This document shows, in pieces, positions 4,168-59,065 of a DNA stretch of 62,786 nucleotides. The first letter of the stretch is position 1. Each line of letters opens with the position of its first letter. This stretch comes from an uncultured Gemmatimonadota bacterium (lineage in GTDB: Bacteria; GCA-2686955). The notes under the pieces were generated by a model. The model made no database searches. It saw nothing but the letters and a program-made list of their open reading frames with translations, and was not told the DNA's origin. The stretch lies in NCBI GenBank assembly GCA_964490075.1, contig CAZBBK010000008.1:62001-124786 (forward strand). The letters run 5' to 3'. The position numbers and the translations under genes are program-made.

Positions 4168-5355
4168 ATGCCATCAACACCCACCCGTCCGGACTCCGAC
4201 GCCGATCCCGGGCGCATTCGCGAGCGCGGCGGTGAGAAGATCACCAAGTGCTGCCAATGCGGCACTTGCACCGCCGTCTGTGACTTGGCGACACCGGAAA
4301 CGTCGTTTCCCAGGCGGCAGGTTCAGCTGGCGCGTTGGGGACTGATGGCCGAGCTGGCCAGCGATCCAGCGATCTGGCTCTGCCACCAGTGCAACGATTG
4401 CACTCGGCGGTGTCCCAAAGACGCGCGGCCGGGCGATGTGTTGCAGGCGGTTCGCGCGACCGCGATCGAGACGCTCGCCGTGCCGCGCTTCATGGGGCGC
4501 CTGGTGGCCCGGGCCGAGGCGACCTGGCCGCTGCTTCTGGGAGTGCCAATCCTGTTCTTCGTGGTTCTATTGGCGCTCACGGGGCATCTGAACGTCCCGC
4601 AGGCACCTTTTCCCCTCGGCAGCTTCGCCTACGAGCTCTTCGTCCCCCACAACCTGATCTACGCGGTGTTCTTTCCGGCGGCGGGACTCGTGATGCTGGC
4701 AATGTGGAGCAGCGGTCGCCGTCTGTGGAGGCGCTTCGACGACGCCAAGCGGCGTCGTGGTTCGTTTCTGTCCAACCTCGTCCCGGTCGTGGTCGAGATC
4801 GCTACCCACGGTCGGTTCAGCGCTTGCGGTCCGTCCGAATCCCGAAAAGCGGGCCACCTGGCGCTGGTTTGGGGTTTCATCGGAGCGGCGGTAACCTCTG
4901 GTCTTCTGATCGTTGCGATCTATGTCATGGATGAGCCCATGCCCTTGCCCCTGGCGCACCCCTTCAAGCTCTTGGGAAATCTGTCGGCGCTCCTTCTTCT
5001 GGCCGGAGGATTTCTTCTGGTGCGCGGCAGGCTGGACCGCGATCCAAACTCCAGCGCATCCACTTCATTCGATCTGTTCTTTCTGTCGCTCGTGATCCTG
5101 GTGATCGTCACCGGGGTCTTGGCGGAGGCGGGGCGTTTCGCGTTTCCGAACGCCGTCAACTGCGCCGTCTATGTCGTTCATCTCGGCGCGGTTCTCAGTC
5201 TGTTTCTGACCTGTCCCTATTCGAAATTCTCTCACCTTTTGTATCGTACCTTGGCCATGGTCCATGAGCGCATGGTTCTGTCGCCATCAATAGAAGATCC
5301 CCAAACAGCGCCGTCGGAGGTCGTAGTGCCCGAGACGGTTGGAGTAACTACATGA
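4168..5355 (+). CDS. qmoC: QmoC, HdrC-like Fe-S domain plus membrane cytochrome b domain
   Basis: [11 protein letters not shown] and [12 protein letters not shown] followed by about 6 TM helices, HPFKLLGN and [11 protein letters not shown]. Confidence 0.9.
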
Positions 5356-6617
5356 GTATGTTGGTCAAGCCCCATGGTGGGCAAGATCTGCTGCCGCTGC
5401 TTCTCGATGATGCGGAGCGGGCTTCGGAGCTGGCTAAGGCCGAGGGCCTCAAGAAGGTCCCGATGACCACGAGGGAGACCTCGGACCTCATCATGATGGG
5501 AATCGGTGCGTTCACGCCCCTGACCGGCTTCATGGGGCACGACGACTGGAAGGGTTGCTGCAGCGAGTACACACTTCCCTCGATGAACGGGCTTTTCTGG
5601 CCAATTCCGATCACGCTCTCGGCCGCGCAGGGTCTGGCCGACTCGATCGGTATCGGTGAGGAGGTCGCGCTCGTCGACACCGAGACCGGAACCATCATGG
5701 GCACCATGAAGGTCACCGAGAAGTACACCATCGACCGGGCCTTCGAGTGCAAGCAGGTCTTCACGACCGACGACAGCGAGCATCCGGGCGTGGCCAAAGT
5801 GATGGAACAGGCCGACGTGAATCTGGCCGGCCCGGTCAAGGTGCTCTCCGAATCCTACTACCCCGACATGTTCAAGGAGATCTACCAGCGACCGGCGGAG
5901 GCGCGGGCGCTGTTCTCGGAGCGTGGCTGGAGCACCGTTGCGGCCCTGCAGCTGCGCAACCCGATGCACAACTCCCACGCCTATCTGGCCTGGATCGCCA
6001 ACGAGATCTGCGACGGCGTGTACATCCACCAGCTGGTCGGCAAGCTGAAGCCTGGCGACATCCCGGCTGATGTTCGTGTCCGAGCGATCGACGCCTTGGT
6101 GAAGAACTACTTCCGAGAAGAGCGCATCATTCAGGGCGGCTACCCGATGGAGATGCGCTACGCCGGGCCGCGCGAGGCTCTGCTGCACGCCGTGTTCCGG
6201 CAAAATTACGGCTGCAGCCACCTGATCGTCGGCCGCGACCACGCGGGCGTCGGGGACTACTACGGCCCCTTCGATGCGCAGAAGATCTTCCACGAGATCC
6301 CCAAGAACGCGCTGGACCTGCAGCCGCTGCCCCTCGACTGGACCTTCTATTGTTACGACTGCGAGACCATGGCCTCGATGAAGACCTGCCCGCACGATAG
6401 CAAGGCGGTCATCGACGACAACGGGCAGTACCAGGGCGGCTCCAGGCTGCTGCTCTCCGGAACCATGCTGCGCAAGCTCATGAGTGAGGGAAAGCCGGTG
6501 CCGAAGGAGTTCTCGAAGCCCGAGGTGGTGGCGATCCTCAAGGACTACTACGACAACCTCGAAGAGCGAGTGGAAATCAAGATGCACGGCGCCGCCACCG
6601 GCGACGTGAAGAAGTAA
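5352..6617 (+). CDS. sat: Sulfate adenylyltransferase (ATP sulfurylase, dissimilatory type)
   Basis: [44 protein letters not shown], CxxC..CPH Zn site, LSGT.LR. Confidence 0.97.
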
Positions 6618-6706
6618 CCAGGGCCGACGGATCTCCGTGGCGAGTGCCGGCTTCGAGACCGGCCTCGCTCCGGAGCCTGACGTCGAATGCACGATCGGGG
6701 ATCCTG

Positions 6707-7255
6707 ATGGCCGCGCAGAAGGTCTCGACAGATACCGTAGTGCGAGCAGTCCGCGAAGACATCACGCAGGTCGACGCCGACGCGTTCGTCTACCACGCCC
6801 AAGGGGATCTGGTTCTCGGAACCGGCTTCGGGAACGCCATAGCTCAGCGTGGCGGACCCTCCATCCAGGCCGAGCTGAATGAGCTGGGACCGTGCCAGAC
6901 CTGCGACGCCGTGATCACCAAGGCGGGCAATCTCAAGGCCAGCCACATCATTCACGCCGTCGGTCCGAGATTCCGCGAGGCGAACATCGAGGAGAAGGTC
7001 CGTCGGACCATCGCCAACGCGATGAAGGTCGCGGAGGAGAACGGGGTTCGCACGCTGGCTGTCCCCGCCTTGGGACGAGGATTCTACGGCGTTCCCCTTC
7101 CGGTCTCGGCCAAGAACACGGTGGCGGGTGTGCTGAACTACTTGCGGCAGGTTAGGTCGGGCCTCTCCGAGGTGCTCATCTGTGTGAACGATCGAAACGA
7201 GCTGGACGCGGTCGAGGCCGAGATCGCGCGAAGCGGCCCGCAAGAGGAGCGCTGA
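6707..7255 (+). CDS. Macro-domain protein with degenerate catalytic motif
   Basis: EDITQ..DA, AVITKAGNLKASHIIHAVGP and PALGRGFYG match the macro fold; canonical NAAN..GGGV is replaced by YHAQ..GTGFG. Start moved to ATG 6707. Confidence 0.85.
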   Translation: MAAQKVSTDTVVRAVREDITQVDADAFVYHAQGDLVLGTGFGNAIAQRGGPSIQAELNELGPCQTCDAVITKAGNLKASHIIHAVGPRFREANIEEKVRRTIANAMKVAEENGVRTLAVPALGRGFYGVPLPVSAKNTVAGVLNYLRQVRSGLSEVLICVNDRNELDAVEAEIARSGPQEER

Positions 7256-7258
7256 CCG

Positions 7259-7930
7259 ATGAGTGCAGCACTACATTTCTCCGAGCACACGCTGCAAGAG
7301 CTCGCGCTGGTGTTCATGGCGCTGGTTTACATCATTCGTCTGCGTTGGCTGTTTCGCTTCAAGGCGGGGCGGGAGCGCCAGGCGCCGACCGGTGCGTTGG
7401 ACACCACTCGGCCGCGAGGCGGGCGCTACTCCGTTGCCATCATCGCGATGCCCTGGGCGCTGGAGAGCTATCGCAAAAACCCTTGGATGTACCTTCAGTT
7501 CGTCGTGTTTCATCTGGGCGTGGTTGCCGCCATCGGATTGTCCTTCCTGATCCCCTACGCCCCCGGGATTCTCGCGAATCCGGCGATGGTCATGCTCATT
7601 CAGGTACTCACAGTGGCGGCGTTCTTCGTTTCCTGTATTCGCCTCTACCGCAGATTGAGCCAGCCGGTGATGCGCAAAATCAGCTCGCCCGACGACTATT
7701 TTTCGCTCGGCCTGCTAACCGTGTGGTTTCTATTCGCGTGTCTGTCGGCATCCAACTCTACCGCCAGGGGAGAAGGCGTTCTTCTCGCGTTCTTCATTCT
7801 CACGGCGTTTTTCCTGATCTACGTTCCATTCAGCAAGATATCCCACTACCTGTACTATCCCTTCACGCGTCTCTGGCTCGGCCGTTCCCTGGGCCACAGA
7901 GGCGTGTATCCGATGACCAAGGGAGCCTGA
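7259..7930 (+). CDS. NarI/TmcC/HmcE-like membrane cytochrome b subunit
   Basis: About 5 TM helices, FHLGV, RKISSPDDYFS, YVPFSKISHY; typical of the NarI/DsrM/TmcC family. Confidence 0.8.
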   Translation: MSAALHFSEHTLQELALVFMALVYIIRLRWLFRFKAGRERQAPTGALDTTRPRGGRYSVAIIAMPWALESYRKNPWMYLQFVVFHLGVVAAIGLSFLIPYAPGILANPAMVMLIQVLTVAAFFVSCIRLYRRLSQPVMRKISSPDDYFSLGLLTVWFLFACLSASNSTARGEGVLLAFFILTAFFLIYVPFSKISHYLYYPFTRLWLGRSLGHRGVYPMTKGA

Positions 7931-7985
7931 CGGAGCCACGAGCGGCGTAGCGCATCTGAAACCAAACGAAGAGCCCACTGACGGA

Positions 7986-9749
7986 GTGAAGGAAGTGCCG
8001 AGCGTGAAAACAGAAGAGAGATCGGAAAAGGCAGAACTCGTCATTCAGAGGTTGGGCGAAAAACTCAATCGACAGGTGGTGGGGTCTCTCGTTGCGTGCG
8101 TGCACTGCGGCATGTGCACCGAGGCATGTCACTACGTGCTCTCCAATCCGGAGGATCCCTCGCTGGCGCCGACGGTCAAAGCCGATCAGATCAGGCGGCT
8201 GTTCAAGCGGCATTTCGATTGGACGGGGCGGGTTTTTCCCTGGTGGGCGAAGGCAGGAAGCGTTGCCACGGAAGAAGACCTGGAAGCACTGAAAGACGTC
8301 GTTTTCGGCAAGTGCACCAACTGCCGCCGCTGCACCTTCAACTGTCCCATGGGGGTCGACTTCGCTACTCTGAACCGCATGGCTCGGGGTCTGTTGGTTT
8401 CTGTCGGCATCATGCCGGAAGGTGTGGCCGCGGTCAGTAAGGACCAATGGGAGATCGGCAATCAGATGGGAGTCCTGAAGGAGGACTACATCGAGACCAT
8501 CGAGTGGATGTCGGAGGAGCTCGTCGACGACGTCGAAGACGATGCGGCCGCGATCCCCATCGACAGGCCGGACTGCAAGATCATCTATACGATCAACCCC
8601 AGAGAGGTGAAGTACGATCCCCGCAGTATCGCCGATGCCGCCAAGATCTTCTACGCGGCGGGTGAGAGCTGGACGATGCCGAGCGAGGGTTGGGACATGA
8701 CCAACTTCGGCCTCTTCTCAGGCGATGATGATCTGGGCGGAACCGTCGCCAGGAGGCTCTACGAGAAGGCGGTGGAGCTCAGGGGCGAGACCGTGGTGAT
8801 GTCAGAGTGCGGACATGGTTATCGATCGACGCGCTGCGAAGGGCCGAACTGGGCCGGGATGGACATCCCCTTCGAGATGGAGAGCTCGGTCATCACCATG
8901 CTGCGCTACATCAAAGAAGGGCGTATCAAGGTCGACAGGAGCAAGAACACCGTCCCGGTTACCTTCCACGATTCCTGCAACAACGCGCGCAGCTGCGGTC
9001 TCACCGAGGAGCCGCGGGAGCTGCTCGACCTGGTGGTCACAGACTTCCGCGAGATGTACCCGAATCGCGCCGAGAACTACTGCTGCACCGGTGGCGGTGG
9101 CGCAATGTCGATGAGCGAGTACGCTTCGCGCCGCTTGGCCTCGGGAAAAGTGAAGGCCGATCAGCTGGCCGAGACGGGCGCAAAAATCGTCGTGACATCG
9201 TGCCACAACTGTGTTGATGGTCTGAGCGACGTGATCAAGCACTACAAGCTGGACATGGAGGTGACGCAGCTGGTGAACCTGGTCGCCAATGCGCTGGTGC
9301 TCGAGGAGAAGCCGGCGCCGGCGCCGGTGGAGCAGGCGCTGGCGGAAGCCGCGGAGACAACGGAGTTCAGCGGGCGCACGGTCCTGGTGGTGGATGACGA
9401 GCCAGACATCTGCACATTCCTGAGCGCGATTCTCGAGGATCACGGAGCGGAGGTGATCCAGGCGACCAGCGGGGAGGAAGCGCTGGGCGTGGCGAAGAAG
9501 CGGCGACCGGATCTGATTACGCTGGATCTGTCGATGCCTGGAATGGACGGCGGGCAAGTGTTCGAGGCGTTGAGGCATGACACCGATCTGGCATCGATTC
9601 CAGTCTGCGTCATTACCGGCAAGCCGGAGCTTCGGCGGGTCATCTACGAGAAAGACATCCTCCGTCCAGAGGGCTACCTGGACAAGCCGGTTGATGAGGA
9701 GACCTTCCTCACCAGTACGCGCAAAATCCTATTGCATGGCAAGGAGTGA
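7986..9749 (+). CDS. TmcB/DsrK/HdrD-like Fe-S CCG-domain protein fused to a C-terminal receiver domain
   Basis: CVHCGMCTEAC, CTNCRRCTFNCP, ECGHG, HDSC, YCCTGGGG, SCHNC; Pro/Ala/Glu linker; then VLVVDDE..DLITLDLSMPG..ITG..DKP. Exact GTG start uncertain (7986-8004). Confidence 0.88.
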   Translation: MKEVPSVKTEERSEKAELVIQRLGEKLNRQVVGSLVACVHCGMCTEACHYVLSNPEDPSLAPTVKADQIRRLFKRHFDWTGRVFPWWAKAGSVATEEDLEALKDVVFGKCTNCRRCTFNCPMGVDFATLNRMARGLLVSVGIMPEGVAAVSKDQWEIGNQMGVLKEDYIETIEWMSEELVDDVEDDAAAIPIDRPDCKIIYTINPREVKYDPRSIADAAKIFYAAGESWTMPSEGWDMTNFGLFSGDDDLGGTVARRLYEKAVELRGETVVMSECGHGYRSTRCEGPNWAGMDIPFEMESSVITMLRYIKEGRIKVDRSKNTVPVTFHDSCNNARSCGLTEEPRELLDLVVTDFREMYPNRAENYCCTGGGGAMSMSEYASRRLASGKVKADQLAETGAKIVVTSCHNCVDGLSDVIKHYKLDMEVTQLVNLVANALVLEEKPAPAPVEQALAEAAETTEFSGRTVLVVDDEPDICTFLSAILEDHGAEVIQATSGEEALGVAKKRRPDLITLDLSMPGMDGGQVFEALRHDTDLASIPVCVITGKPELRRVIYEKDILRPEGYLDKPVDEETFLTSTRKILLHGKE

Positions 9750-9752
9750 GCG

Positions 9753-11216
9753 GTGCCTGGCGAGTCAACCAAGGATCCAGGGGGGTATCGAGACTATTTC
9801 GATGCTTTGCCCTGCTACTTGACCGTTCAGGACCGCGATCTGCGGGTGATTCGAGCCAATCGGTTCTTTGAACAGGACTTCGGCAGACACGGCAATCGGC
9901 ACTGCTACGAACTCTTGAAGGGCAGCTCTGAAAGGTGTGATCTGTGTCCGGTGGCGGCCTCCTTCGAAGACGGCAGGCGACACCGAGTTGCAGAGGAAGT
10001 CAGGTGTCGCGACGGACGGTTGTTGACAGTGCTGGTCCATACCACGCCGATCACCGATGCCGAGGGGCAAGTGACTTCAGTGCTGCAAATGGGCACGGAT
10101 ATTACCAGCATGAGGCGTCTACAGGAGAGTTTGGCGGAGAGCCAGGAGCGGTATCGGCTGCTGTTCGGTTCCGTACCGTGCTACATCTCGATCCAGGATA
10201 GAGACCTGCGCATCCTGGAGGCGAACCGCCTATTCAAGGAGGAGTTCGGAGACGATATCGGAGCGAAGTGCTACGAGATCTACAAGCATAGAACCGAGCA
10301 ATGTGTGCCTTGTCCGGTGCAGGATACATTCCGAGATGGCAAGGTGCATCACAGCGAAGAGGCGGTGACTTCGCGATCCGGCCGGGAGATCAACACCATG
10401 GTCTACTCGGCGCCGATCGTCGATTCTGAAGGCGGAATCAAGTCGGTGATGGAGATGAGCGCGGACATTACGCCGATCCGCGAGCTGCAGTCGCAGCTGG
10501 AGTCGATTGGTCTGTTGATCAGCTCGGTTTCGCATGGCGTGAGAGGACTTCTGAACGGCCTGGACGGCGGCATGTACTTGCTGAAGACCGGTGTTTCGAA
10601 GGGCATCCGGAAGCGGCAGGATCAAGGCCTGGAAATGGTCCAGAGGAATGTCGACCGGATTCGCGGCATGGTCATGAACATCCTCTACTACGCAAAGGAG
10701 AGAACACCCAACTTAGAAGCCATCTCTGCCCGAGAGATCGCCGAAGAGGCGATTTCGGTCATCGAAGGCCAGGCAGAGCAGCTCGCCATTGGGTTGAAAC
10801 TGGAAATCGCCGATGCGGCCGGGGAGTTCCAGGCCGATCGACAGGCTGTGCGCTCGTTGCTCATCAATCTCTTGGAGAATGGTCTGGACGCATGCCGAGT
10901 CAAGGCTGGAGAGAGAGCGGGCGAAGTGGGACTGGTGGTGCGAGATGAGGGCGGTCGGGTCACCTTCGAAGTCTCCGACAATGGCATCGGCATGGACAGA
11001 GAGACGAAAGAGAAGGCATTTGGCCTCTTCTTCACGTCAAAGGGAGTGAAGGGGACAGGCCTGGGGCTCTTCATCGCGAACAAAATCGCGATGGCGCACG
11101 GTGGGGAGGTCGAGCTGGAGTCCGAGGAGGGACAAGGAACACGAATCACCGTAGTAATCCCCCGCTCGTCCGTCGAGAAGAAGGGCGAGCAGGAACGGCA
11201 TGGGTCTTCGCCATGA
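9753..11216 (+). CDS. Cytoplasmic sensor histidine kinase with two Cys-rich PAS domains
   Basis: Two PAS repeats (PCY...CY-x9-CxxCP), H-box VSHGVRG, N-box NLLENG, DNGIGM, FFTSK, GTGLGL; no TM segment. Confidence 0.92.
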   Translation: MPGESTKDPGGYRDYFDALPCYLTVQDRDLRVIRANRFFEQDFGRHGNRHCYELLKGSSERCDLCPVAASFEDGRRHRVAEEVRCRDGRLLTVLVHTTPITDAEGQVTSVLQMGTDITSMRRLQESLAESQERYRLLFGSVPCYISIQDRDLRILEANRLFKEEFGDDIGAKCYEIYKHRTEQCVPCPVQDTFRDGKVHHSEEAVTSRSGREINTMVYSAPIVDSEGGIKSVMEMSADITPIRELQSQLESIGLLISSVSHGVRGLLNGLDGGMYLLKTGVSKGIRKRQDQGLEMVQRNVDRIRGMVMNILYYAKERTPNLEAISAREIAEEAISVIEGQAEQLAIGLKLEIADAAGEFQADRQAVRSLLINLLENGLDACRVKAGERAGEVGLVVRDEGGRVTFEVSDNGIGMDRETKEKAFGLFFTSKGVKGTGLGLFIANKIAMAHGGEVELESEEGQGTRITVVIPRSSVEKKGEQERHGSSP

Positions 11217-11241
11217 GTGGCGGAAAGGCAGGCTGCAGGCA

Positions 11242-11631
11242 ATGGCAGATATGAAGACGGTCCTGATCGTGGACGACGAGCCGGACACAAGGACCTTCCT
11301 CCAGGTTCTGCTGGAGGACAATGGCTATGCCACGATTCTAGCAGGAGACGGCAACCAGGCGATCGAGAAGGTCAAGGAAGAAGCCCCTGACCTGATTTCT
11401 CTGGACATCACGATGCCGGAGAAGAGCGGAGTGAGGTTTTACCGCGAGATGAAGGAGAGCTCCGCGTGGGGCGCCATCCCGATCATCATCGTTACAGGAA
11501 TTTCAGGCGATTTCGAGCGCTTCATATCGACGCGACGCAAGGTACCGCCGCCCGACGGCTACATTTCCAAGCCGGTGGACAAGGCGAGTTTTCTCGATCT
11601 GGTCGCAAAACTGACGGAACGCCGAGGATGA
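11242..11631 (+). CDS. Single-domain response regulator (receiver only)
   Basis: VLIVDDE, DLISLDITMP, VTG, SKP; no output domain. Confidence 0.92.
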   Translation: MADMKTVLIVDDEPDTRTFLQVLLEDNGYATILAGDGNQAIEKVKEEAPDLISLDITMPEKSGVRFYREMKESSAWGAIPIIIVTGISGDFERFISTRRKVPPPDGYISKPVDKASFLDLVAKLTERRG

Positions 11632-11707
11632 AGGAGTACGGGGGAAGTCTCAACCTACCAACGCCTGGCAGAAAAGGCGGCTGTCACGCGGATCGGAAAG
11701 AAGCACT

Positions 11708-12664
11708 ATGATGGCACAGCTTCCCTACATTGCCGTCTATCTGGCAGCGGGGGCCTTTGTGGTCGCTGTGGTCGCGCGAGTTCTCATGTGGTCCAGGATG
11801 CCTTTGCATCTGCGCTGGGAGCTGTACCCGGTCGCTCATGAGGGGTCGCGGGCTCACTATGGTGGGTCCTACCTGGAAGAGGTGGATTGGTGGAAGAAGC
11901 CGAGGGAGGTCTCCTTGCTGGGGGAGCTCAAGGTCATGCTTCCGGAGATTTTGTTTCTGGTGGCGCTCAAGGAGCACAACAGGAAGCTCTGGCTACGCTC
12001 TTTTCCTTTCCATTTCGGCATCTACTTGTGCATTGTCTCGCTCCTCGCCATGTTCGGCGCCGGCGTCTTGACCGCGCTCTTGCCCGCGGCCATAGAGGGG
12101 AGTTTGGGCGCGGCAATCCAACAAGTGGCGCGAATCACCGCGATCGCGGGCCTCGGCCTTGGGATCCTGGGCGCGCTGGGATTGCTGCAGCGACGTCTGA
12201 GCGCGTCGGAGCTGAGGGAGTTCACGGCCGGCGCAGATCTGTTCAACCTTGCCTTCTTCGTGGTCGCCTTCGGGACCGGTCTGCTCAGCGTGATCTTATT
12301 CGATCCGGAGTTCTCTGGATCGATGGCCTTCTTTGCAAATCTAGTGCGGGGCAATATCGAACCGACTGCGGCCACAGGTCTCGGCGCCGTTCTGCCGACG
12401 CTTTCGGTGGTTCTGCTCAGCGCTCTGGTGATCTACATCCCGTTGACCCACATGTCGCATTTCGTCGGCAAGTTTTTCGCCTATCACCAGATCCGCTGGG
12501 CCGACAAGCCGAACCTCAGCGGTGGACCGGAGGAGAAGGCGATCAACCAGAACTTGCAGCGTAAGGTCAGCTGGGCAGCGCCTCACATCGAGGGCAAAGG
12601 CAGCAAGACATGGGCGGACCTCGCTACGGAGCTTCCGTCCGCCGAGCAGAAGGAAAAGAAGTGA
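11708..12664 (+). CDS. dsrM: DsrM-like membrane cytochrome b (NarI/HdrE family)
   Basis: MPLHLRWELYPVAHE..YGGSY, FPFHFGIY, YIPLTHMSHF; multiple TM helices; coupled to a dsrK-like gene. Orthology to true DsrM is not proven. Confidence 0.75.
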   Translation: MMAQLPYIAVYLAAGAFVVAVVARVLMWSRMPLHLRWELYPVAHEGSRAHYGGSYLEEVDWWKKPREVSLLGELKVMLPEILFLVALKEHNRKLWLRSFPFHFGIYLCIVSLLAMFGAGVLTALLPAAIEGSLGAAIQQVARITAIAGLGLGILGALGLLQRRLSASELREFTAGADLFNLAFFVVAFGTGLLSVILFDPEFSGSMAFFANLVRGNIEPTAATGLGAVLPTLSVVLLSALVIYIPLTHMSHFVGKFFAYHQIRWADKPNLSGGPEEKAINQNLQRKVSWAAPHIEGKGSKTWADLATELPSAEQKEKK

Positions 12665-14262
12665 AATCCGGCACGCGCCTTGATGACATATCCAAGGGTC
12701 ATGGACCGATCGGACATCTCGACCTCGAAGCCCAAGCGCCGCTTCCTCCCCCCTTCGACAAGCTCGAGGAGGAGCCGCCCTTCTCGCCTCTGACCGAGAA
12801 GGCGCTCGAGCGATTCGAGCAGTTGGATGATACGATAGCCGTTAGCATTCCGAAACCGACCAGCAAAGAGGAGGAGGACCGGCTGGTCGGGTTGTTTCTG
12901 AGCGGATTGAAGAGGTGTTTCAGCGAAGACGACAACTGGACGTTTTTGCAGCCGCTGGTGCTCTCGATGGAGCACTGCGCCAAGTGTCAGACCTGCAACG
13001 AAGCCTGCCACATCTACGAGGAGAGCGGACGCAATCCGCTGTACCGTCCAACCTATCGGTCAGAGGTGTTGCGGAGAATCTACCATAAGTACATCCGCGG
13101 TGGTTCGCCATGGGTTCGCGGAGACGTGGATTTGAACTGGAAGACCGTCGCTCGACTGATCGAGCTGTCTTTTCGCTGCAATGTCTGCCGGCGCTGCGCT
13201 CAAACTTGTCCTATCGGCGTAGACAATGCGTTGCTGGCGCGGGAGATCCGCAAGATCGCCAGCCAGGAGATGGGCATCACCGCCAACGAGCTGCACCAGG
13301 ATGGCTCGGTGCTGCAGCTGAGGGTCGGCTCATCGACCGGCATGAACGCTCTGGTGTTCAAGGACAACATGGAATTCATCGACGAGGACACGTCGGAGAA
13401 GACCGGAGTCGACGTCGCAACGCCGATCGACCAGGAGGGCGCGGATATCCTCCTGATTCACAATGCCGGCGAGATCATGTCCTGGCCCGAAAACGTGGGC
13501 GCCTTCTCACTCCTGTTCAACAGGGCGGGCCTGAGTTGGACGATGTCGAGCGAGCTCGCCGCCTACGACAGCATCAACTATGGTGTCTGGTACGACGATG
13601 TCCAATTCGCCAGAACGGCGTTGCTCCACGCTCAAGCAGCGAAGAACCTGGGCGTCAAGAAGATCGTTCTCGGGGAGTGCGGCCACGCGCACAAGGCGCT
13701 AACCGTCATCGCGGACAAGGTGCTGACCGGCGAACTGAACATCCCGCGAGAAAGCTGCATGCCCCTGCTGCGCGACATCGTGAAGTCGGGCAAGATCGAG
13801 TTCGACAAGAGCCGAAACAGCTTTCCCGTAACGCTGCACGACCCCTGCAACTATGTACGGCTGATGGGCATCGTGAGCCCGCAGCGAGAAGTCATCGACG
13901 AGATCGTTCCGGAAGGTCGGTTCAGGGAAATGGCGCCGAACGGCGTTGAGAACTACTGCTGCGGAGGAGGATCAGGCTTCGCGATCATGAGCGCCCATAA
14001 CTTCACCGATTGGCGCCATCGCGTGTCGGGGCGACGCAAGTTCCGGCAGGTTCTGGAGGCCTTTCGGGGTGAGACCATGGACGTCGATCACCCGAAGTAC
14101 CTCTGCGCTCCCTGCAGCAACTGCAAGGGCCAATTGAGAGACATCATCACCTACTACGATGCCTGGGAGAAGGCGGGTATCTACTACAGCGGCCTGGTCG
14201 AGTTGATCGTCAACGCGATGGTCGATGTTAATCCAGGCTTCATAGATTGGGAATGGCACTGA
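12661..14262 (+). CDS. dsrK: DsrK-like Fe-S/CCG catalytic subunit
   Basis: CAKCQTCNEAC, CNVCRRCAQTCP, GECGHAHK, HDPCN, YCCGGGSG, APCSNC; GTG start overlaps the dsrM stop (GTGA). Confidence 0.8.
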   Translation: MKSGTRLDDISKGHGPIGHLDLEAQAPLPPPFDKLEEEPPFSPLTEKALERFEQLDDTIAVSIPKPTSKEEEDRLVGLFLSGLKRCFSEDDNWTFLQPLVLSMEHCAKCQTCNEACHIYEESGRNPLYRPTYRSEVLRRIYHKYIRGGSPWVRGDVDLNWKTVARLIELSFRCNVCRRCAQTCPIGVDNALLAREIRKIASQEMGITANELHQDGSVLQLRVGSSTGMNALVFKDNMEFIDEDTSEKTGVDVATPIDQEGADILLIHNAGEIMSWPENVGAFSLLFNRAGLSWTMSSELAAYDSINYGVWYDDVQFARTALLHAQAAKNLGVKKIVLGECGHAHKALTVIADKVLTGELNIPRESCMPLLRDIVKSGKIEFDKSRNSFPVTLHDPCNYVRLMGIVSPQREVIDEIVPEGRFREMAPNGVENYCCGGGSGFAIMSAHNFTDWRHRVSGRRKFRQVLEAFRGETMDVDHPKYLCAPCSNCKGQLRDIITYYDAWEKAGIYYSGLVELIVNAMVDVNPGFIDWEWH

Positions 14263-14270
14263 GCGACGCA

Positions 14271-15140
14271 ATGGATCCAATTCGAGTACTGCTGGTCGAC
14301 GACGAGATCGATTTCGCGGAAGCCTTGGCCATGCGATTGGAGGCAGCCGGCTACGACGCCCGTGCCGTGGACAGCGGTGCGGATGCGCTGGAGCTTTTGG
14401 CAACGACCGACATGGACGTGGTTCTCCTCGATCTGGTGATGCCGGGATTGAGCGGAATCGACGTATTGCGGAGAATCAAGGATGACTGGCCCCTGATCGA
14501 AGTACTGCTCTTGACCGGAAAGGGTGCGGAGAAGGAGGCGATCGAGGCCATGCGCAGGGGCGCGTACGATTTCCTCGTGAAGCCTCCTGAGTTCGAGGGC
14601 GTGAAGGCGAGGATAGAAGGAGCGTTCGTCAGGGTTCAGAAACAGCGCGAGCGGATCGCGAAGGCCCAGGAAGCGAGCGGGATTGGTGCGCAGGTCGAAG
14701 CGACCGAGGAAGCTGGCGCCGAAGATGGCGTCAGAGAGGGCCGCGAGACCGGCAGGCTTCTGGCGGTGAGCACCCAAGCCGAGTTCTCGGGACAGCTGAT
14801 CGACTACGCTCTCGACATGGCGCAGAGAATCTCGGCCGAGGTGATTGCCTTGAACGCGGCGGGAATAGCGACCGACACGTTCGACGCCTTCCCGACGGCG
14901 AAACAACGTGTGTTGGCCGACTACCAGTCACTCTGCAAAGAGTCGATCGGGGAGTTCCGTCGTCAAGCCGACGAGCGAGAGATCCCATTTCATCACATCG
15001 TGAAGCCGAACGACGTCGCCGAGGCGATCCACGAGATCCAGGCGGAGATCGGGCAGGTCGACTTCGTGCTGTCTACCTCTACTGATGACGCGATGATCGA
15101 AAGCTCCAAGCCTACGATATTGGTATACTCACCGACTTGA
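14271..15140 (+). CDS. Receiver domain fused to a universal-stress-protein-like C-terminal domain
   Basis: VLLVDDE..VVLLDLVMPG..LLTG..VKP; C-terminal LLAVS..LIDYALDMAQRISAEVIALN..FHHIVK..VDFVLS resembles the USP fold. Confidence 0.75.
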   Translation: MDPIRVLLVDDEIDFAEALAMRLEAAGYDARAVDSGADALELLATTDMDVVLLDLVMPGLSGIDVLRRIKDDWPLIEVLLLTGKGAEKEAIEAMRRGAYDFLVKPPEFEGVKARIEGAFVRVQKQRERIAKAQEASGIGAQVEATEEAGAEDGVREGRETGRLLAVSTQAEFSGQLIDYALDMAQRISAEVIALNAAGIATDTFDAFPTAKQRVLADYQSLCKESIGEFRRQADEREIPFHHIVKPNDVAEAIHEIQAEIGQVDFVLSTSTDDAMIESSKPTILVYSPT

Positions 15141-15153
15141 TGAGAGTCACCAA

Positions 15154-15237
15154 ATGGACTCGACCTTCATCTATAGATGCGTGCTGGTTTTGGCGGTATT
15201 CGGCCTGTGCTTTCTCTTTCGCAGAGAGCATCGCTGA
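15154..15237 (+). CDS. Putative 27-aa single-TM small protein (MDSTFIYRCVLVLAVFGLCFLFRREHR)
   Basis: ATG preceded by GAGAG; hydrophobic core and basic C-terminus; fills the gap before the permease; below the ORF-track size cutoff. Confidence 0.4.
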   Translation: MDSTFIYRCVLVLAVFGLCFLFRREHR

Positions 15238-15264
15238 GGATCCAACGGAGAGGTTGTTGGTCAG

Positions 15265-17076
15265 ATGACTCCTGACATGATCTTGACGATGCTGGTCCTG
15301 GTCTGCGTAATCCTCGTTTTCGTATTCGAGTGGGTGCGCGTGGACGTGGTCGGGATCACGATGATGGTGCTGCTGCCCCTGATCGGGTTGATATCACCCG
15401 GCGATGCATTCGTTGGCCTCAGCAGCAACGCCGTGTGTTCGATCATCGCGGTCATCATCATCGGCGCGGGGCTCGACAAGACCGGAGTCATGAACCAGCT
15501 CGCAGCGCCGATCATTCGATTGGCCGGGGAAAGCGAGAAGAGAATCGTCATTCTGATCTCCGGAACCGTCGGCGTCATCTCGAGCATGATGCAGAATATC
15601 GGCGCGGCGGCGCTCTTCTTGCCCGCGGCGCAGCGGATTGGCAAGCGAGTCGGAGTGCCGGTCTCGCGGATCCTGATGCCGATGGGGTTTTGCGCGATCA
15701 TCGGCGGGACATTGACGCTGGTGGGAGCGAGCCCGACGATTCTGCTCAACGATCTCATGATCCTCGAAGGGCAGAAGCTGGAGCCCTTCGGGCTCTTTAC
15801 GCAAACCCCTATCGGTATCTGCCTTCTGGCGACCGCGATTCTTTACTTCGTGGTGCTGGGGCGGTTCATTCTGCCCGCCTCCGATGGCGAGGTGGATCGA
15901 GGCATCACCGCTTCGATTTCGGAGACCTACCAGCCCCTGGCCAAGACTTACGAGCTGCACATCCCAGAGGACTTCGGGGAGACTCGGACGCTGGCCGAGC
16001 TCGAAATCCGCACCGGGTTCCTGGTCACAGTGATCGGAATCAACCACGCGAGCCTGGGCCGCAAGAACATGGTCCCGCGCAGATACGATGCGATCTCTGG
16101 TGGGGATGATGTCGCCGTGGTGGGAGGGGAGAAGCAGGTTCGGGCGTTGGCGCAGGAGAAGGGGTGGATTCTGCGCGAAGATCTGGAGGTGTTCAGCGAA
16201 CACCTGTCGCGAATGAGCTCGGGAATGACGGAGACGGTCGTCGCCCATCGATCGGAGCTGATCGGCAAGACCTTGAACGAAGTCAATTTCAAAGAGGACT
16301 TCAGGGTGAACCCGCTCGCACTGATGAAGGGCAACCGCATCTACTACACGGGACTGGGGCACATCAAACTGCAGGTGGGAGATACTCTGCTGCTACAAGG
16401 AGGCTGGGGGCAATTTCATCGGCTGAAGAACTTGCCGCAACCGCGAGCTCTCACCTTCTCGACACCCCTGGAGGGAGAGATCCTGCGCCCGGGCAAGGCC
16501 CGGCTGGCGGTCTTCTGGCTGCTGCTCGCGCTCGCCCAGATCATCTTCTTCAAGGTGCAGCTCTCCGTTGCCTTGATGTCGGGCGCATTGGGCATGATCA
16601 TCACCGGAGTGCTGACGATCGATGAAGCCTATCGATCGGTCGATTGGATGACGGTGTTTCTCTTGGCCGGTCTGATCCCTCTGGGGATTGCGTTTGAGCA
16701 ATCGGGCACCGCAGCGTTCATCGCCCATTGGGTTCTGGGGTTGGTGGGGGAGCCCTCGCCGATCGTTCTGTTGGGTGTCGTTGGATTAATGACATCTTTC
16801 TTCACCTTGGTGGTGTCGAATGTCGGAGCAACAGTGTTGCTGGTACCGCTGTGTATGAATATGGCGGTGATGGCGGGAGGTGACCCACGGATGGCGGCAT
16901 TGGTGGTTGGGCTCTCGGCGTCGAATACCTTCGTGCTGCCGACTCACCAGGTAAACGCGCTGGTGATGAGGCCGGGGCGCTACCGCACGCTGGACTACGC
17001 GAAGGCTGGTGCGGGCATGACGGTGCTCTTCTTGGCTGTAGAACTCACGGTGCTCTACCTGTTCTACGGCGTCTGA
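15265..17076 (+). CDS. SLC13/DASS-family permease with TrkA-C domains (candidate sulfate or dicarboxylate transporter)
   Basis: RVDVVG, GLDKTG, MQNIGAAALFLP, GGTLTLVGASPTILL, central soluble domains, SNVGATVLL, PTHQVNALV. Confidence 0.9.
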   Translation: MTPDMILTMLVLVCVILVFVFEWVRVDVVGITMMVLLPLIGLISPGDAFVGLSSNAVCSIIAVIIIGAGLDKTGVMNQLAAPIIRLAGESEKRIVILISGTVGVISSMMQNIGAAALFLPAAQRIGKRVGVPVSRILMPMGFCAIIGGTLTLVGASPTILLNDLMILEGQKLEPFGLFTQTPIGICLLATAILYFVVLGRFILPASDGEVDRGITASISETYQPLAKTYELHIPEDFGETRTLAELEIRTGFLVTVIGINHASLGRKNMVPRRYDAISGGDDVAVVGGEKQVRALAQEKGWILREDLEVFSEHLSRMSSGMTETVVAHRSELIGKTLNEVNFKEDFRVNPLALMKGNRIYYTGLGHIKLQVGDTLLLQGGWGQFHRLKNLPQPRALTFSTPLEGEILRPGKARLAVFWLLLALAQIIFFKVQLSVALMSGALGMIITGVLTIDEAYRSVDWMTVFLLAGLIPLGIAFEQSGTAAFIAHWVLGLVGEPSPIVLLGVVGLMTSFFTLVVSNVGATVLLVPLCMNMAVMAGGDPRMAALVVGLSASNTFVLPTHQVNALVMRPGRYRTLDYAKAGAGMTVLFLAVELTVLYLFYGV

Positions 17077-17926: not shown

Positions 17927-17942
17927 TGCAATTGCCGTGCCA
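17927..17942 (-). promoter_or_regulatory. sigma54 (-24/-12) promoter of the flagellin-like gene
   Basis: Minus strand reads TGGCACGGCAATTGCA, matching consensus TGGCAC-N5-TTGCA. Confidence 0.85.
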
Positions 17943-41849: not shown

Positions 41850-43193
41850 ATGGCGAAGATCCTGATCGTGGACGACGAGCGCAAGGTGCGCGTAGTGCTC
41901 AAGAACCTGCTGGAGTTGGACGGGCACGATGTGCGCGAAGCGGAGGATGGGGCCTACGCCCTCCAGGCGATCGAAGGCGAGGCGCCCGACCTGGTGATCT
42001 CCGATATCAAGATGCCGGGACTGGACGGTCTTGCGCTGCTCAGGGAGCTCAAGGCGCGGGCGATTCCCAGCGAGGTGATCTTGATGACGGCCTACGCGTC
42101 GGCGAAGACCGCGGTGGAAGCGATGCGCGCGGGCGCTCACGACTACCTCATCAAGCCCTTCGAAAACGACGAAGTGTTGCTGCGAATCAACCGACTGCTG
42201 GAGGGGCGAGGCCTGGAGCGCCAGAACGCGGCGCTCCGCCAGGAGCTGTCGGTCGGACCCTTCGGCGTCGACCGAGTCGTCTATCGCAGCGCCGCGATGG
42301 GGATCGTGCTGCAGATGGCCGAAAAGGTGGCGGCCACCGATGCGACCGTGCTCTTGCGGGGTGAGAGCGGGACCGGCAAGGAGGTGATCGCGGAGTGCAT
42401 CCACACCTCTTCCAGCCGCGCATCGCGACCCCTGCTGCGGATCAACTGCGGAGCGCTGGCCGAGAACCTCCTGGAATCGGAGCTCTTCGGCCACGAGAAG
42501 GGTGCCTTCACCGGAGCCCTTGCGCGCAAGATCGGCGTGTTCGAGACGGCCGACGGGGGCACCATCTTCCTCGACGAGATCGGTGAGACCCCACCGCCCC
42601 TGCAGGTGAAGCTGCTGCGGGTGCTGGAGAGCAGCACCTTCTCGCGGCTCGGCAGCCTGGACCCGATCACGGTCGATGTGCGCGTCATCGCAGCCACCAA
42701 CAAGGACCTGGAAGAGGCCATGGCCGAAGGTGCATTTCGCGAGGATCTCTTCTACCGGCTGGCCGTGTTTCCGATCGAGATGCCGCCGCTGCGCTCCCGA
42801 AGCGAGGACATCTTGCCGCTGGCGGAGCATTTCCTGCGCCGCCACGGCCGCGATTCCTCCGCCCTCACCGAGAACGCGCGCCAGCGCCTGGAGGGTTACC
42901 GGTGGCCCGGCAACGTCCGGGAGCTCCGGAACGTCATCGAGCGGGCGTGCATCCTGGCCGCCGCCGCGGCGATCGACGGGGACGCTTTGCCCGATCAGGT
43001 TCGCCCGGGCGAGGCGCTCTCCTACAACATCCCCTTCCCGGACGAGGGGCTGGACCTGCGCCAGGTCGAGCAGGACTTGATCCGCCAGGCGCTGCGCAAG
43101 TCGGAGGGCAACAAGTCCCGAGCGGCTGGACTGCTCGGCATCACGCGCAGGACCCTGTACTCGAAGCTGGAGAAGTACGGAGATCTCTCGTGA
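41850..43193 (+). CDS. sigma54-dependent response regulator (NtrC/ZraR family)
   Basis: Receiver domain; GESGTGKE, ESELFGHEKGAFTGA, FLDEIGE, WPGNVREL; Fis-type HTH. Confidence 0.97.
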   Translation: MAKILIVDDERKVRVVLKNLLELDGHDVREAEDGAYALQAIEGEAPDLVISDIKMPGLDGLALLRELKARAIPSEVILMTAYASAKTAVEAMRAGAHDYLIKPFENDEVLLRINRLLEGRGLERQNAALRQELSVGPFGVDRVVYRSAAMGIVLQMAEKVAATDATVLLRGESGTGKEVIAECIHTSSSRASRPLLRINCGALAENLLESELFGHEKGAFTGALARKIGVFETADGGTIFLDEIGETPPPLQVKLLRVLESSTFSRLGSLDPITVDVRVIAATNKDLEEAMAEGAFREDLFYRLAVFPIEMPPLRSRSEDILPLAEHFLRRHGRDSSALTENARQRLEGYRWPGNVRELRNVIERACILAAAAAIDGDALPDQVRPGEALSYNIPFPDEGLDLRQVEQDLIRQALRKSEGNKSRAAGLLGITRRTLYSKLEKYGDLS

Positions 43194-59049: not shown

Positions 59050-59065
59050 TGCAAGGGACGTGCCA
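59050..59065 (-). promoter_or_regulatory. sigma54 (-24/-12) promoter of dnaK
   Basis: Minus strand TGGCACGTCCCTTGCA; IHF-like TTTCAATAGGTTG at 59093-59105. Confidence 0.8.

Follow-up and report, generated by a model that had tools for sequence, protein, structure and literature searches.

The closest described relatives of the system considered here are the DsrMKJOP, Hmc and Tmc membrane complexes. A single CCG motif is common to their subunits DsrK, HmcF and TmcB, as is a conserved cysteine within a T/GECGH sequence, and DsrMKJOP reduces DsrC trisulfide with menaquinol (PMC10861901). The cytoplasmic partner of Hmc and Tmc is given as unknown, with DsrC or ferredoxin suggested for this role (PMC4215793). 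Response regulators and kinases adjoin hmc in Desulfovibrio (PMC5109826), and rrf1 and rrf2 regulate hmc expression (bioRxiv 10.1101/2023.11.02.564894). Here we analyze a stretch of 62,786 nucleotides (hereafter, the window) from an uncultured Gemmatimonadota bacterium (GTDB lineage GCA-2686955; assembly GCA_964490075.1, contig CAZBBK010000008.1, positions 62,001 to 124,786), in which a gene for a subunit of this type is fused to a response regulator receiver domain. The fusion gene lies in a cassette with genes for a macro-domain protein, a cytochrome b, a histidine kinase and a second, stand-alone receiver (REC2). A redox module of the DsrK/HmcF/TmcB type joined to two-component signalling by covalent fusion is a conserved design without a published study: the initial annotation of the locus, made from the sequence alone, knew of no characterised precedent, and full-text literature searches returned no paper on this architecture, although literature beyond that searched may hold one.

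Like DsrMK, the locus combines a NarI-like cytochrome b with a cytoplasmic subunit carrying two 4Fe-4S sites, one CCG motif and an xECGH sequence, and like DsrMK it is found in a dsr cluster (PMC10861901). It differs from DsrMK in that the fusion protein scores 232 bits against a DsrK cut-off of 400, whereas the true DsrK of the same genome reaches 735 bits and is accompanied by DsrM, DsrJ, DsrO and DsrP; moreover, DsrK has no receiver, and the present locus includes a macro-domain gene and a kinase. The resemblance to HmcE/HmcF and TmcC/TmcB lies in the NCBIfam models, which are the best for both subunits, and in the adjacency of redox genes and two-component genes. Unlike Hmc and Tmc, the cassette encodes neither a periplasmic cytochrome c subunit nor a DNA-binding regulator, and its receiver is part of the enzyme chain. 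Rrf1 is a receiver protein, and DVU0259 is encoded near tmc.

The fusion gene is a single stop-free frame of 587 codons, the uninterrupted open reading frame (ORF) that had been described initially (Table 1). Its catalytic part begins with a 4Fe-4S dicluster domain (Pfam Fer4_8, residues 36-124), and continues to a CCG domain (residues 325-409; 43.7 bits, gathering score 20.6), the only such stretch that Pfam detects in the protein. An alignment of 27 family members shows no variation at the eight cysteines of the dicluster domain (C38/41/44/48 and C110/113/116/120). The six CCG cysteines, arranged as C331/C337...C366-C367...C406xxC409, are likewise invariant, with the small departure that T368 follows the cysteine pair and precedes G369. 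The second CCG motif is reduced to SECGH (C275) followed by C284, all of whose named positions are invariant and in which Ser replaces the Thr/Gly of the T/GECGH consensus. With one complete motif only, the protein differs from the methanogen-type HdrD/HdrB heterodisulfide reductases, which have two. Thus, the initial description of a heterodisulfide-reductase-like enzyme with two ferredoxin motifs and 'CCG motifs' stands as regards the ferredoxin motifs and membership of the HdrD superfamily of Fe-S proteins, but has to be given up as regards the plural of CCG and the two-CCG reductase; judged by its motifs, the enzyme part is DsrK/HmcF/TmcB-like.

Table 1 Features of the fusion gene and its cassette (positions are those of the window)
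Feature	Position	Strand	Basis and remarks
Macro-domain protein, first cassette gene	6707..7255	+	Pfam Macro, 89 bits; ORF opens with GTG at 6644, ATG at 6707 is the likely start
NarI-like membrane cytochrome b (HmcE/TmcC-like), presumed quinone-facing anchor	7259..7930	+	NCBIfam, conservation
DsrK/HmcF/TmcB-like Fe-S CCG subunit with C-terminal receiver	7986..9749	+	587 aa; Pfam, NCBIfam, alignment, model
Two CX2CX2CX3C ferredoxin motifs (C38-C48; C110-C120-P121)	8097..8348	+	Eight Cys invariant in 27 members
SECGH motif with presumed catalytic Cys275	8802..8816	+	S273, E274, C275, G276, H277 invariant
Single complete CCG domain, presumed non-cubane 4Fe-4S site	8958..9212	+	Pfam CCG; six Cys invariant
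Flexible Pro/Ala/Glu-rich linker EEKPAPAPVEQALAEAAETTE	9303..9365	+	Residues 440-460, 21 aa, disordered
Receiver (REC) domain	9381..9713	+	Phospho-acceptor D514 at 9525-9527; Pfam Response_reg
Soluble histidine kinase: PAS, PAS, H-box, HATPase_c	9753..11216	+	Pfam; 487 aa; starts 4 nt past the fusion stop
Stand-alone single-domain receiver REC2	11200..11631	+	Pfam Response_reg, E 4.1e-21; overlaps the kinase gene end by 17 nt

The best NCBIfam models for the fusion protein are HmcF (NF045711, 320.4 bits against a cut-off of 750) and TmcB (NF045724, 310 against 735), followed by DsrK (NF045796, 231.7 bits). Because it stays below every equivalog cut-off, the fusion protein represents a subfamily of its own. 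Consistently, at the 50% clustering level the only other full-length fused representative, P0122, is 52% identical, and the next relatives are unfused and 43-44% identical. An AlphaFold2 model built on 63 sequences was of high confidence (mean predicted local distance difference test score [pLDDT] 93.7, predicted template modelling score 0.79), with pLDDT below 50 confined to residues 1-5 and, within the linker, 449-457. No structure of DsrK, HmcF or TmcB surfaced in Foldseek and phmmer searches, in which the nearest solved entries were EtfD of Mycobacterium smegmatis and then a LutA model. EtfD (PDB 9ojn) shares the Fer4 and CCG fold (Foldseek E 2.9e-17, TMq 0.53; phmmer E 9.9e-12), but is only 19% identical, contains its membrane domain in the same chain, lacks a receiver and has another physiological partner.

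The receiver (PF00072, residues 466-576; 74.8 bits against 30.2, E 7.6e-21) follows a linker located exactly where it had been placed initially. The gap between the catalytic part and the receiver varies from 22 to 66 residues across loci (median 31), and the linker is hypervariable in the 27-member alignment. The receiver retains what had been noted for it, namely the DD pair, the phosphoacceptor Asp, the Thr and the Lys: D470, D471, D514 (within LDLSMP) and K567 are invariant, whereas T544 and, in addition, Y564 occur in 90% or more of the members. A surface motif, GxPELRRLIY...PEGYLDKP, is also strongly conserved. In the model, five strands alternate with five helices at pLDDT above 90, and the domain superposes on DivK (Foldseek TMt 0.89, 32% identity). 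Among receiver models, the DivK/DVU0259-type NF045717 fits the fused receiver as well as REC2 best, although both score below its 160-bit cut-off (79.5 and 98.2 bits, respectively) and one of them is fused to an enzyme. Phosphorylation of the fused receiver and gating of the enzyme by it, as envisaged initially, are inferred. A docking prediction between the catalytic part (residues 1-445) and the receiver (residues 460-587) returned 'no answer' (score 0.00) and counts neither way. In CheB and PleD, an N-terminal receiver controls the attached soluble methylesterase or cyclase. The fusion protein would resemble these enzymes in placing a catalytic domain under the control of receiver phosphorylation; it differs from them in having its receiver at the C-terminus, on a long tether, and a membrane-bound respiratory Fe-S subunit as the output.

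The fusion is real and widespread. The linker is spanned by Logan contigs of two runs, which show 0 differences, no indel and no joint (run X1, record 7, over 9071-9900; run X3, record 23, over 9066-9481), so that the misassembly against which a check had been advised is excluded at the linker; both runs belong to one marine study and may include the source sample. In runs X1-X3, the summed contig depth jumps from ~4-10 to ~60-100 at 8297-8367, 8652-8722 and 9007-9148, all in the catalytic domain, most likely owing to near-identical conserved segments of relatives in the same metagenomes. The domain-architecture query proposed initially returned Fer4, CCG and Response_reg together in all 120 homologues among the matches listed (72-80% identity, 575-602 aa). 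With one genome taken per species, at least 601 stretches matched the search patterns, at least 578 of which encode relatives. For the analysis of gene neighbourhoods we used the best 80 loci, all from metagenome-assembled genomes, whose titles or origins name 13 phyla; the fusion with its receiver is present in 73 of the 78 informative ones. The gene family has a wide distribution in uncultured lineages that bear dsrAB, among them Acidobacteriota, Gemmatimonadota, Planctomycetota, Zixiibacteriota, Calditrichota and Ignavibacteriota. Metabolic reconstructions currently overlook it, because public records, as seen in the source annotations of the listed homologues, name it only 'response regulator', 'Fe-S oxidoreductase' or 'Fe-S oxidoreductase/CheY-like'.

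The gene order of the cassette is highly conserved, as determined by tblastn of the window proteins against the 80 loci, counting only loci whose contig reaches far enough. The cytochrome b gene lies upstream of the fusion gene in all 74 such loci, and the macro gene is directly upstream in 68 of 69 (the exception being L040). Among receiver-bearing loci, the kinase gene is directly downstream in 65 of 66 (L003 being the exception) and a same-strand REC2 gene follows the kinase in 41 of 54, as opposed to none of five and none of four receiver-less loci, respectively. A distance of 4 nt separates the macro stop from the cytochrome b start, as it does the fusion stop from the kinase start; together with the overlap of the kinase and REC2 genes, this spacing suggests co-translation. 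Identity to the window proteins across loci is 74-82% for the catalytic part, 51-76% for cytochrome b, 51-70% for the fused receiver, 42-65% for the kinase, 36-69% for REC2 and 39-56% for the macro protein. Pfam and NCBIfam scans of the cassette proteins detected no DNA-binding output domain.

The cytochrome b, for which HmcE (56.6 bits) and TmcC (53.1 bits) are the best NCBIfam models, both below cut-off, has five hydrophobic segments in its translation; H85 and H196 are invariant in 75 sequences, and H6 and H10 are kept in ~84%. In the kinase, H261 is 100% conserved in 64 orthologues, and so are C51, C62, C65, C173, C184 and C187, with C143 at 98% and C21 at 75%. These cysteines form a C-x29-C-x10-C-x2-C(P) pattern in each of the two PAS domains, which suggests a metal or Fe-S site, possibly one for redox sensing by Fe-S or Zn. 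No hydrophobic segment or transmembrane sensor is apparent in the kinase translation, and the sole match of the PAS region to PDB sequences is 3luq_A (E 0.023), not a close solved relative. As for the macro protein, orthologue matches to the ORF opening at 6644 begin near residue 22, and the nearest NCBIfam models, all below cut-off, are O-acetyl-ADP-ribose deacetylase and ADP-ribose-binding protein. The macro gene also heads the cassette in the receiver-less variants, and the glycine-rich motifs of its product are conserved. The position that we take to correspond to the NAAN motif of macro hydrolases is not conserved, and the protein may be a binding module rather than a hydrolase.

Scans of positions 5300-15300 for sigma-70 promoters and terminators gave no more matches than expected by chance, and the sigma-54 consensus, with up to 2 mismatches allowed, was matched 47 times where chance predicts 50.9, and not at all on the plus strand between sat and the macro gene. 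Perfect sigma-54 consensus sequences (TGGCAC-N5-TTGC) occur on the minus strand at 17928-17942 and 59051-59065, neither near the cassette, and a sigma-54 activator gene occupies 41850-43193. The window also encodes PorV-like, TonB-receptor and GWxTD proteins.

A tree of the catalytic domain was built from the 80 loci, the window and four outgroups (IQ-TREE quick mode, LG+G4), with L052, whose contig ends, left ungrouped. The cassette fusion family forms one clade with a Shimodaira-Hasegawa-like approximate likelihood ratio test (SH-aLRT) support of 99, and the divergent fused P0122 is its sister. The receiver-less genes (L014, L022, L029, L036 and L078), in which a stop codon stands at or just past the last helix of the catalytic domain, are nested within the fused clade at no fewer than three places, on branches with SH-aLRT of at least 95, which implies that the fusion is ancestral to the cassette family. 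Read from the tree together with the synteny, the receiver, the kinase and REC2 disappeared jointly on several occasions, and the core of macro protein, cytochrome b and Fe-S subunit was retained; the signalling module is thus, on this phylogenetic evidence, an accessory that is inherited and lost as a unit. On the same tree, the window protein groups with loci titled Planctomycetota (L010 and L035). The host belongs to a five-species phylum of its own, and this grouping therefore suggests gene transfer of the cassette.

The likeness of the two receivers of the cassette, pointed out initially, is borne out: they are 39% identical over 114 residues (E 4e-29), as compared to 38% over only 81 residues between the fused receiver and the receiver of a third regulator at 14247. 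A receiver tree was built from 25 fused receivers (the window and 24 drawn at random from 73), 25 REC2 proteins (the window and 24 at random from 44) and, as the only background, 73 other receivers of the same genome (84 domain hits minus the two query genes and nine short hits). Fused receivers group with SH-aLRT 98 and REC2 proteins with 94, and the two form a joint clade (99) apart from the other genome receivers, as mutual closest relatives. The P0122 receiver falls inside this joint clade (96), nearer to REC2 (median 110 bits, 42%) than to the fused receivers (86 bits, 35%). Five metagenome loci resemble P0122, at only 50-56% identity, and in all of them the fusion gene is followed by the kinase gene; the most divergent, L096, has no REC2 match in the 3.4 kb downstream. 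Twelve bona fide hmcF loci were inspected with 1.5-kb flanks. A receiver gene lies downstream of hmcF in four, but only that of L087, on the same strand, falls in the fused and REC2 clade (98), the other three being on the opposite strand and unrelated; thus, one hmc locus shares this feature of the cassette, whereas the other 11 have no related receiver within 1.5 kb. The split between the clades of fused receivers and REC2 predates the dispersal of the cassette over more than ten phyla. The proposal that the fused receiver arose by duplication followed by fusion accordingly survives as an old event, though neither as a local one in this genome nor with a fixed direction of fusion; the receiver of P0122, the most divergent fused representative, is REC2-like.

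Several lines of evidence link the cassette to dissimilatory sulfur metabolism. In the host genome (5.70 Mb, 95.3% complete), the contig with the fusion gene also carries dsrA, at a distance of ~13 kb upstream. Encoded in the 19 kb that precede the window are CysG, DsrP, DsrO, DsrJ, DsrK, DsrM and DsrC, as well as a DsrN-like amidase, a DsrL-like flavoprotein, DsrB, DsrA and AprA, and QmoA-like and QmoB-like proteins, QmoC (over its cut-off) and Sat are encoded directly before the cassette in the window. Judged from these family assignments, the cassette sits in a complete dsr/apr/qmo/sat island with a true DsrMKJOP. An ORF before QmoA (43-585) matches no Pfam or NCBIfam family, which leaves the label 'AprB', once considered for it, unsupported; counterparts with 45% identity occur in L053 and L062. 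Since the genome encodes four DsrK-type paralogues and five DsrC-like proteins, the fused protein is an accessory. One of the paralogues (G000:C11:63666-66841, 352 bits) is flanked by three DsrC-like genes. Downstream of the cassette, within 11708-15140, a second DsrM-like/DsrK-like pair (DsrK model 321 bits, below the cut-off; N-terminal extension of ~110 aa) is followed by a 297-aa regulator with a receiver and, in its C-terminal half, no match to any family. In 11 of the 80 loci, a DsrK-like gene (at least 50% identity) is found near the cassette.

The association extends across genomes. A dsrA gene over the curated cut-off is present in 44 of the 50 cassette genomes behind L001-L050 and in none of 14 control genomes, and a dsrA match at E ≤0.001 in 49 of the 50; on four contigs, the cassette lies 11-21 kb from dsrA. 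The phylum of the host comprises five species genomes only, and for background we therefore turned to 201 genomes of another phylum, titled Gemmatimonadota, that of G023, a genome chosen because it is cassette-positive. There, dsrA was found in seven genomes, the catalytic domain (77-79% identity) in five and both in four, that is, dsrA accompanies four of five cassette-positive but only three of 196 cassette-negative genomes. With G023 left out, the counts are three of four against three of 196, although these are related genomes and not independent. It should be noted that, because the genomes are metagenome-assembled, the absence of a cassette or of dsrA from any of them is uncertain.

Building on the observed architecture, residue conservation, synteny, joint inheritance and loss of the signalling genes, and linkage to dsr, we propose that a menaquinol:DsrC-type redox module is under post-translational phospho-control by a tethered receiver, a reading that we give about an even chance of being correct. 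The arguments that weigh most are the shared inheritance and loss of kinase, receiver and REC2, a cassette free of transcriptional output, the conserved residues of the phosphorylation chemistry and a redox core that outlives the signalling genes. The fusion protein would serve in the cytoplasm as the catalytic half of a membrane redox module with two subunits, of the DsrMK/HmcEF/TmcBC type, in which the NarI-like cytochrome b is its partner, and the module would be an accessory paralogue within a dissimilatory sulfate/sulfite-reduction island, most likely one through which the menaquinone pool exchanges electrons with a DsrC-type protein thiol or (tri)sulfide. The soluble kinase would probably sense redox state or metal through its two PAS domains with their Cys motifs, and it would phosphorylate both the tethered receiver, at D514, and the free sister REC2. 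Phosphorylation could then switch or tune the enzyme, for example, through receiver-driven dimerisation or by covering and exposing the surface at which a partner docks. The two-component system would have electron flow rather than transcription as its output; with a covalently fused receiver and no DNA-binding regulator in the cassette, control would act on the protein. Inferred in this proposal are the substrate, the phosphotransfer and how, and in which direction, the enzyme responds. A more specific version, in our view somewhat less likely than not, holds that a Cys-ligated, possibly Fe-S or Zn, PAS kinase would phosphorylate the tethered receiver and thereby open or close an auxiliary route from menaquinol to DsrC in a matter of seconds and independently of transcription, with the macro protein adding a nucleotide input (an ADP-ribose-like or adenylyl-sulfur ligand).

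A number of observations weigh against this proposal. The fusion protein remains under all three equivalog cut-offs, and the true HmcF proteins of the 12 hmcF loci are only 33-36% identical to it. The closest fold, EtfD, is HdrD-like and yet not a disulfide reductase, which implies that CCG proteins need not act on disulfides. An HmcF-like relative, P0130 (44% identical), carries a C-terminal DsrC-like domain (PF04358) where this family has its receiver and was considered as a substrate fusion pointing to DsrC, but this argument was dropped, as the domain has no cysteine. The REC2 gene is missing from its usual place in 13 of the 54 receiver-bearing loci. Six of the 50 cassette genomes fall below the dsrA cut-off, one of them without any match; three of the seven dsrA-positive genomes in the phylum sample (G112, G181 and G220) lack the cassette, as does G054, a dsrA-bearing member of the host's own five-species phylum, and G072 has the cassette but no dsrA match at E ≤1e-100. 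The Dsr pathway of the host could run in either direction; DsrH was not found in the genome, and a search for DsrD carries no weight, because its control matched nowhere. Finally, the runs listed as containing 7259-11631 include no RNA run, as against four DNA runs of one marine study.

Alternatively, the module could itself be the sensor: cytochrome b and the Fe-S/CCG protein would read the redox state of the quinone pool or of thiols, and the tethered receiver would relay it to the kinase and REC2 by DivK-like allostery, with REC2 acting on some target as the output. Such a role would suit the DivK-like, single-domain affinities of both receivers (NF045717 is the best model and DivK is among the top structural matches), the kinase without a transmembrane sensor, the want of a DNA-binding output in the cassette and the presence of a bona fide DsrMKJOP in the genome. 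We nonetheless consider it unlikely. The macro/cytochrome b/Fe-S core outlasts repeated loss of the receiver, the kinase and REC2, and because it persists without them, the redox module has a function of its own, which argues that it is more than a sensor; in addition, conservation is higher in the catalytic part (74-82% identity) than in the signalling parts (42-70%), and the conserved Cys-PAS sites of the kinase could do the sensing themselves. Phospho-control of the enzyme has also to be set against the idea that the fused receiver is a phosphate sink or a scaffold, which competes with REC2 or anchors the kinase at the membrane while enzyme activity stays unchanged. One kinase facing two sister receivers would be in keeping with this, and a fixed intramolecular interface would be at odds with so long and hypervariable a linker. 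However, in the 13 loci where REC2 is away from its usual position the fused receiver and the kinase are kept, marking the fused receiver as the constant partner of the kinase, and the receiver surface motif is strongly conserved, so that we regard a sink or scaffold as distinctly improbable.

A further question concerns the substrate, which might not be DsrC: the protein could be an electron-transfer or quinone-linked CCG protein akin to EtfD, LutA or GlpC, or one tied to the ligand of the macro protein. EtfD and LutA are indeed the closest solved structures, the scores lie under the DsrK, HmcF and TmcB cut-offs, the macro gene is a nearly constant neighbour, and for Hmc and Tmc the cytoplasmic partner is itself given as unknown, DsrC or ferredoxin being suggested (PMC4215793). 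Against this stand the SECGH cysteine and single CCG motif, which are the DsrK/HmcF/TmcB signature, the strong co-occurrence and physical linkage with dsrAB, and the five DsrC-like genes of the genome, and we consider a substrate other than DsrC quite unlikely. That the fusion should be an assembly artefact, or its receiver decayed and inert, is hardly conceivable, and nothing was found in favour of it: contigs of two runs cross the linker unchanged, the fusion recurs in 73 of 78 loci from many phyla and in every one of the 120 listed homologues, and the residues of the phosphorylation chemistry are invariant.

How electrons are partitioned between parallel membrane complexes in sulfate/sulfite reducers is an open question. 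With a phospho-acceptor Asp, a dedicated kinase and natural receiver-less variants, this family makes the regulation of DsrK-type enzymes directly testable. If the more specific version of our proposal is true, the cassette would be the first case in which phosphorylation directly controls electron flow in dissimilatory sulfur metabolism, and one that gene transfer has carried into more than ten phyla.

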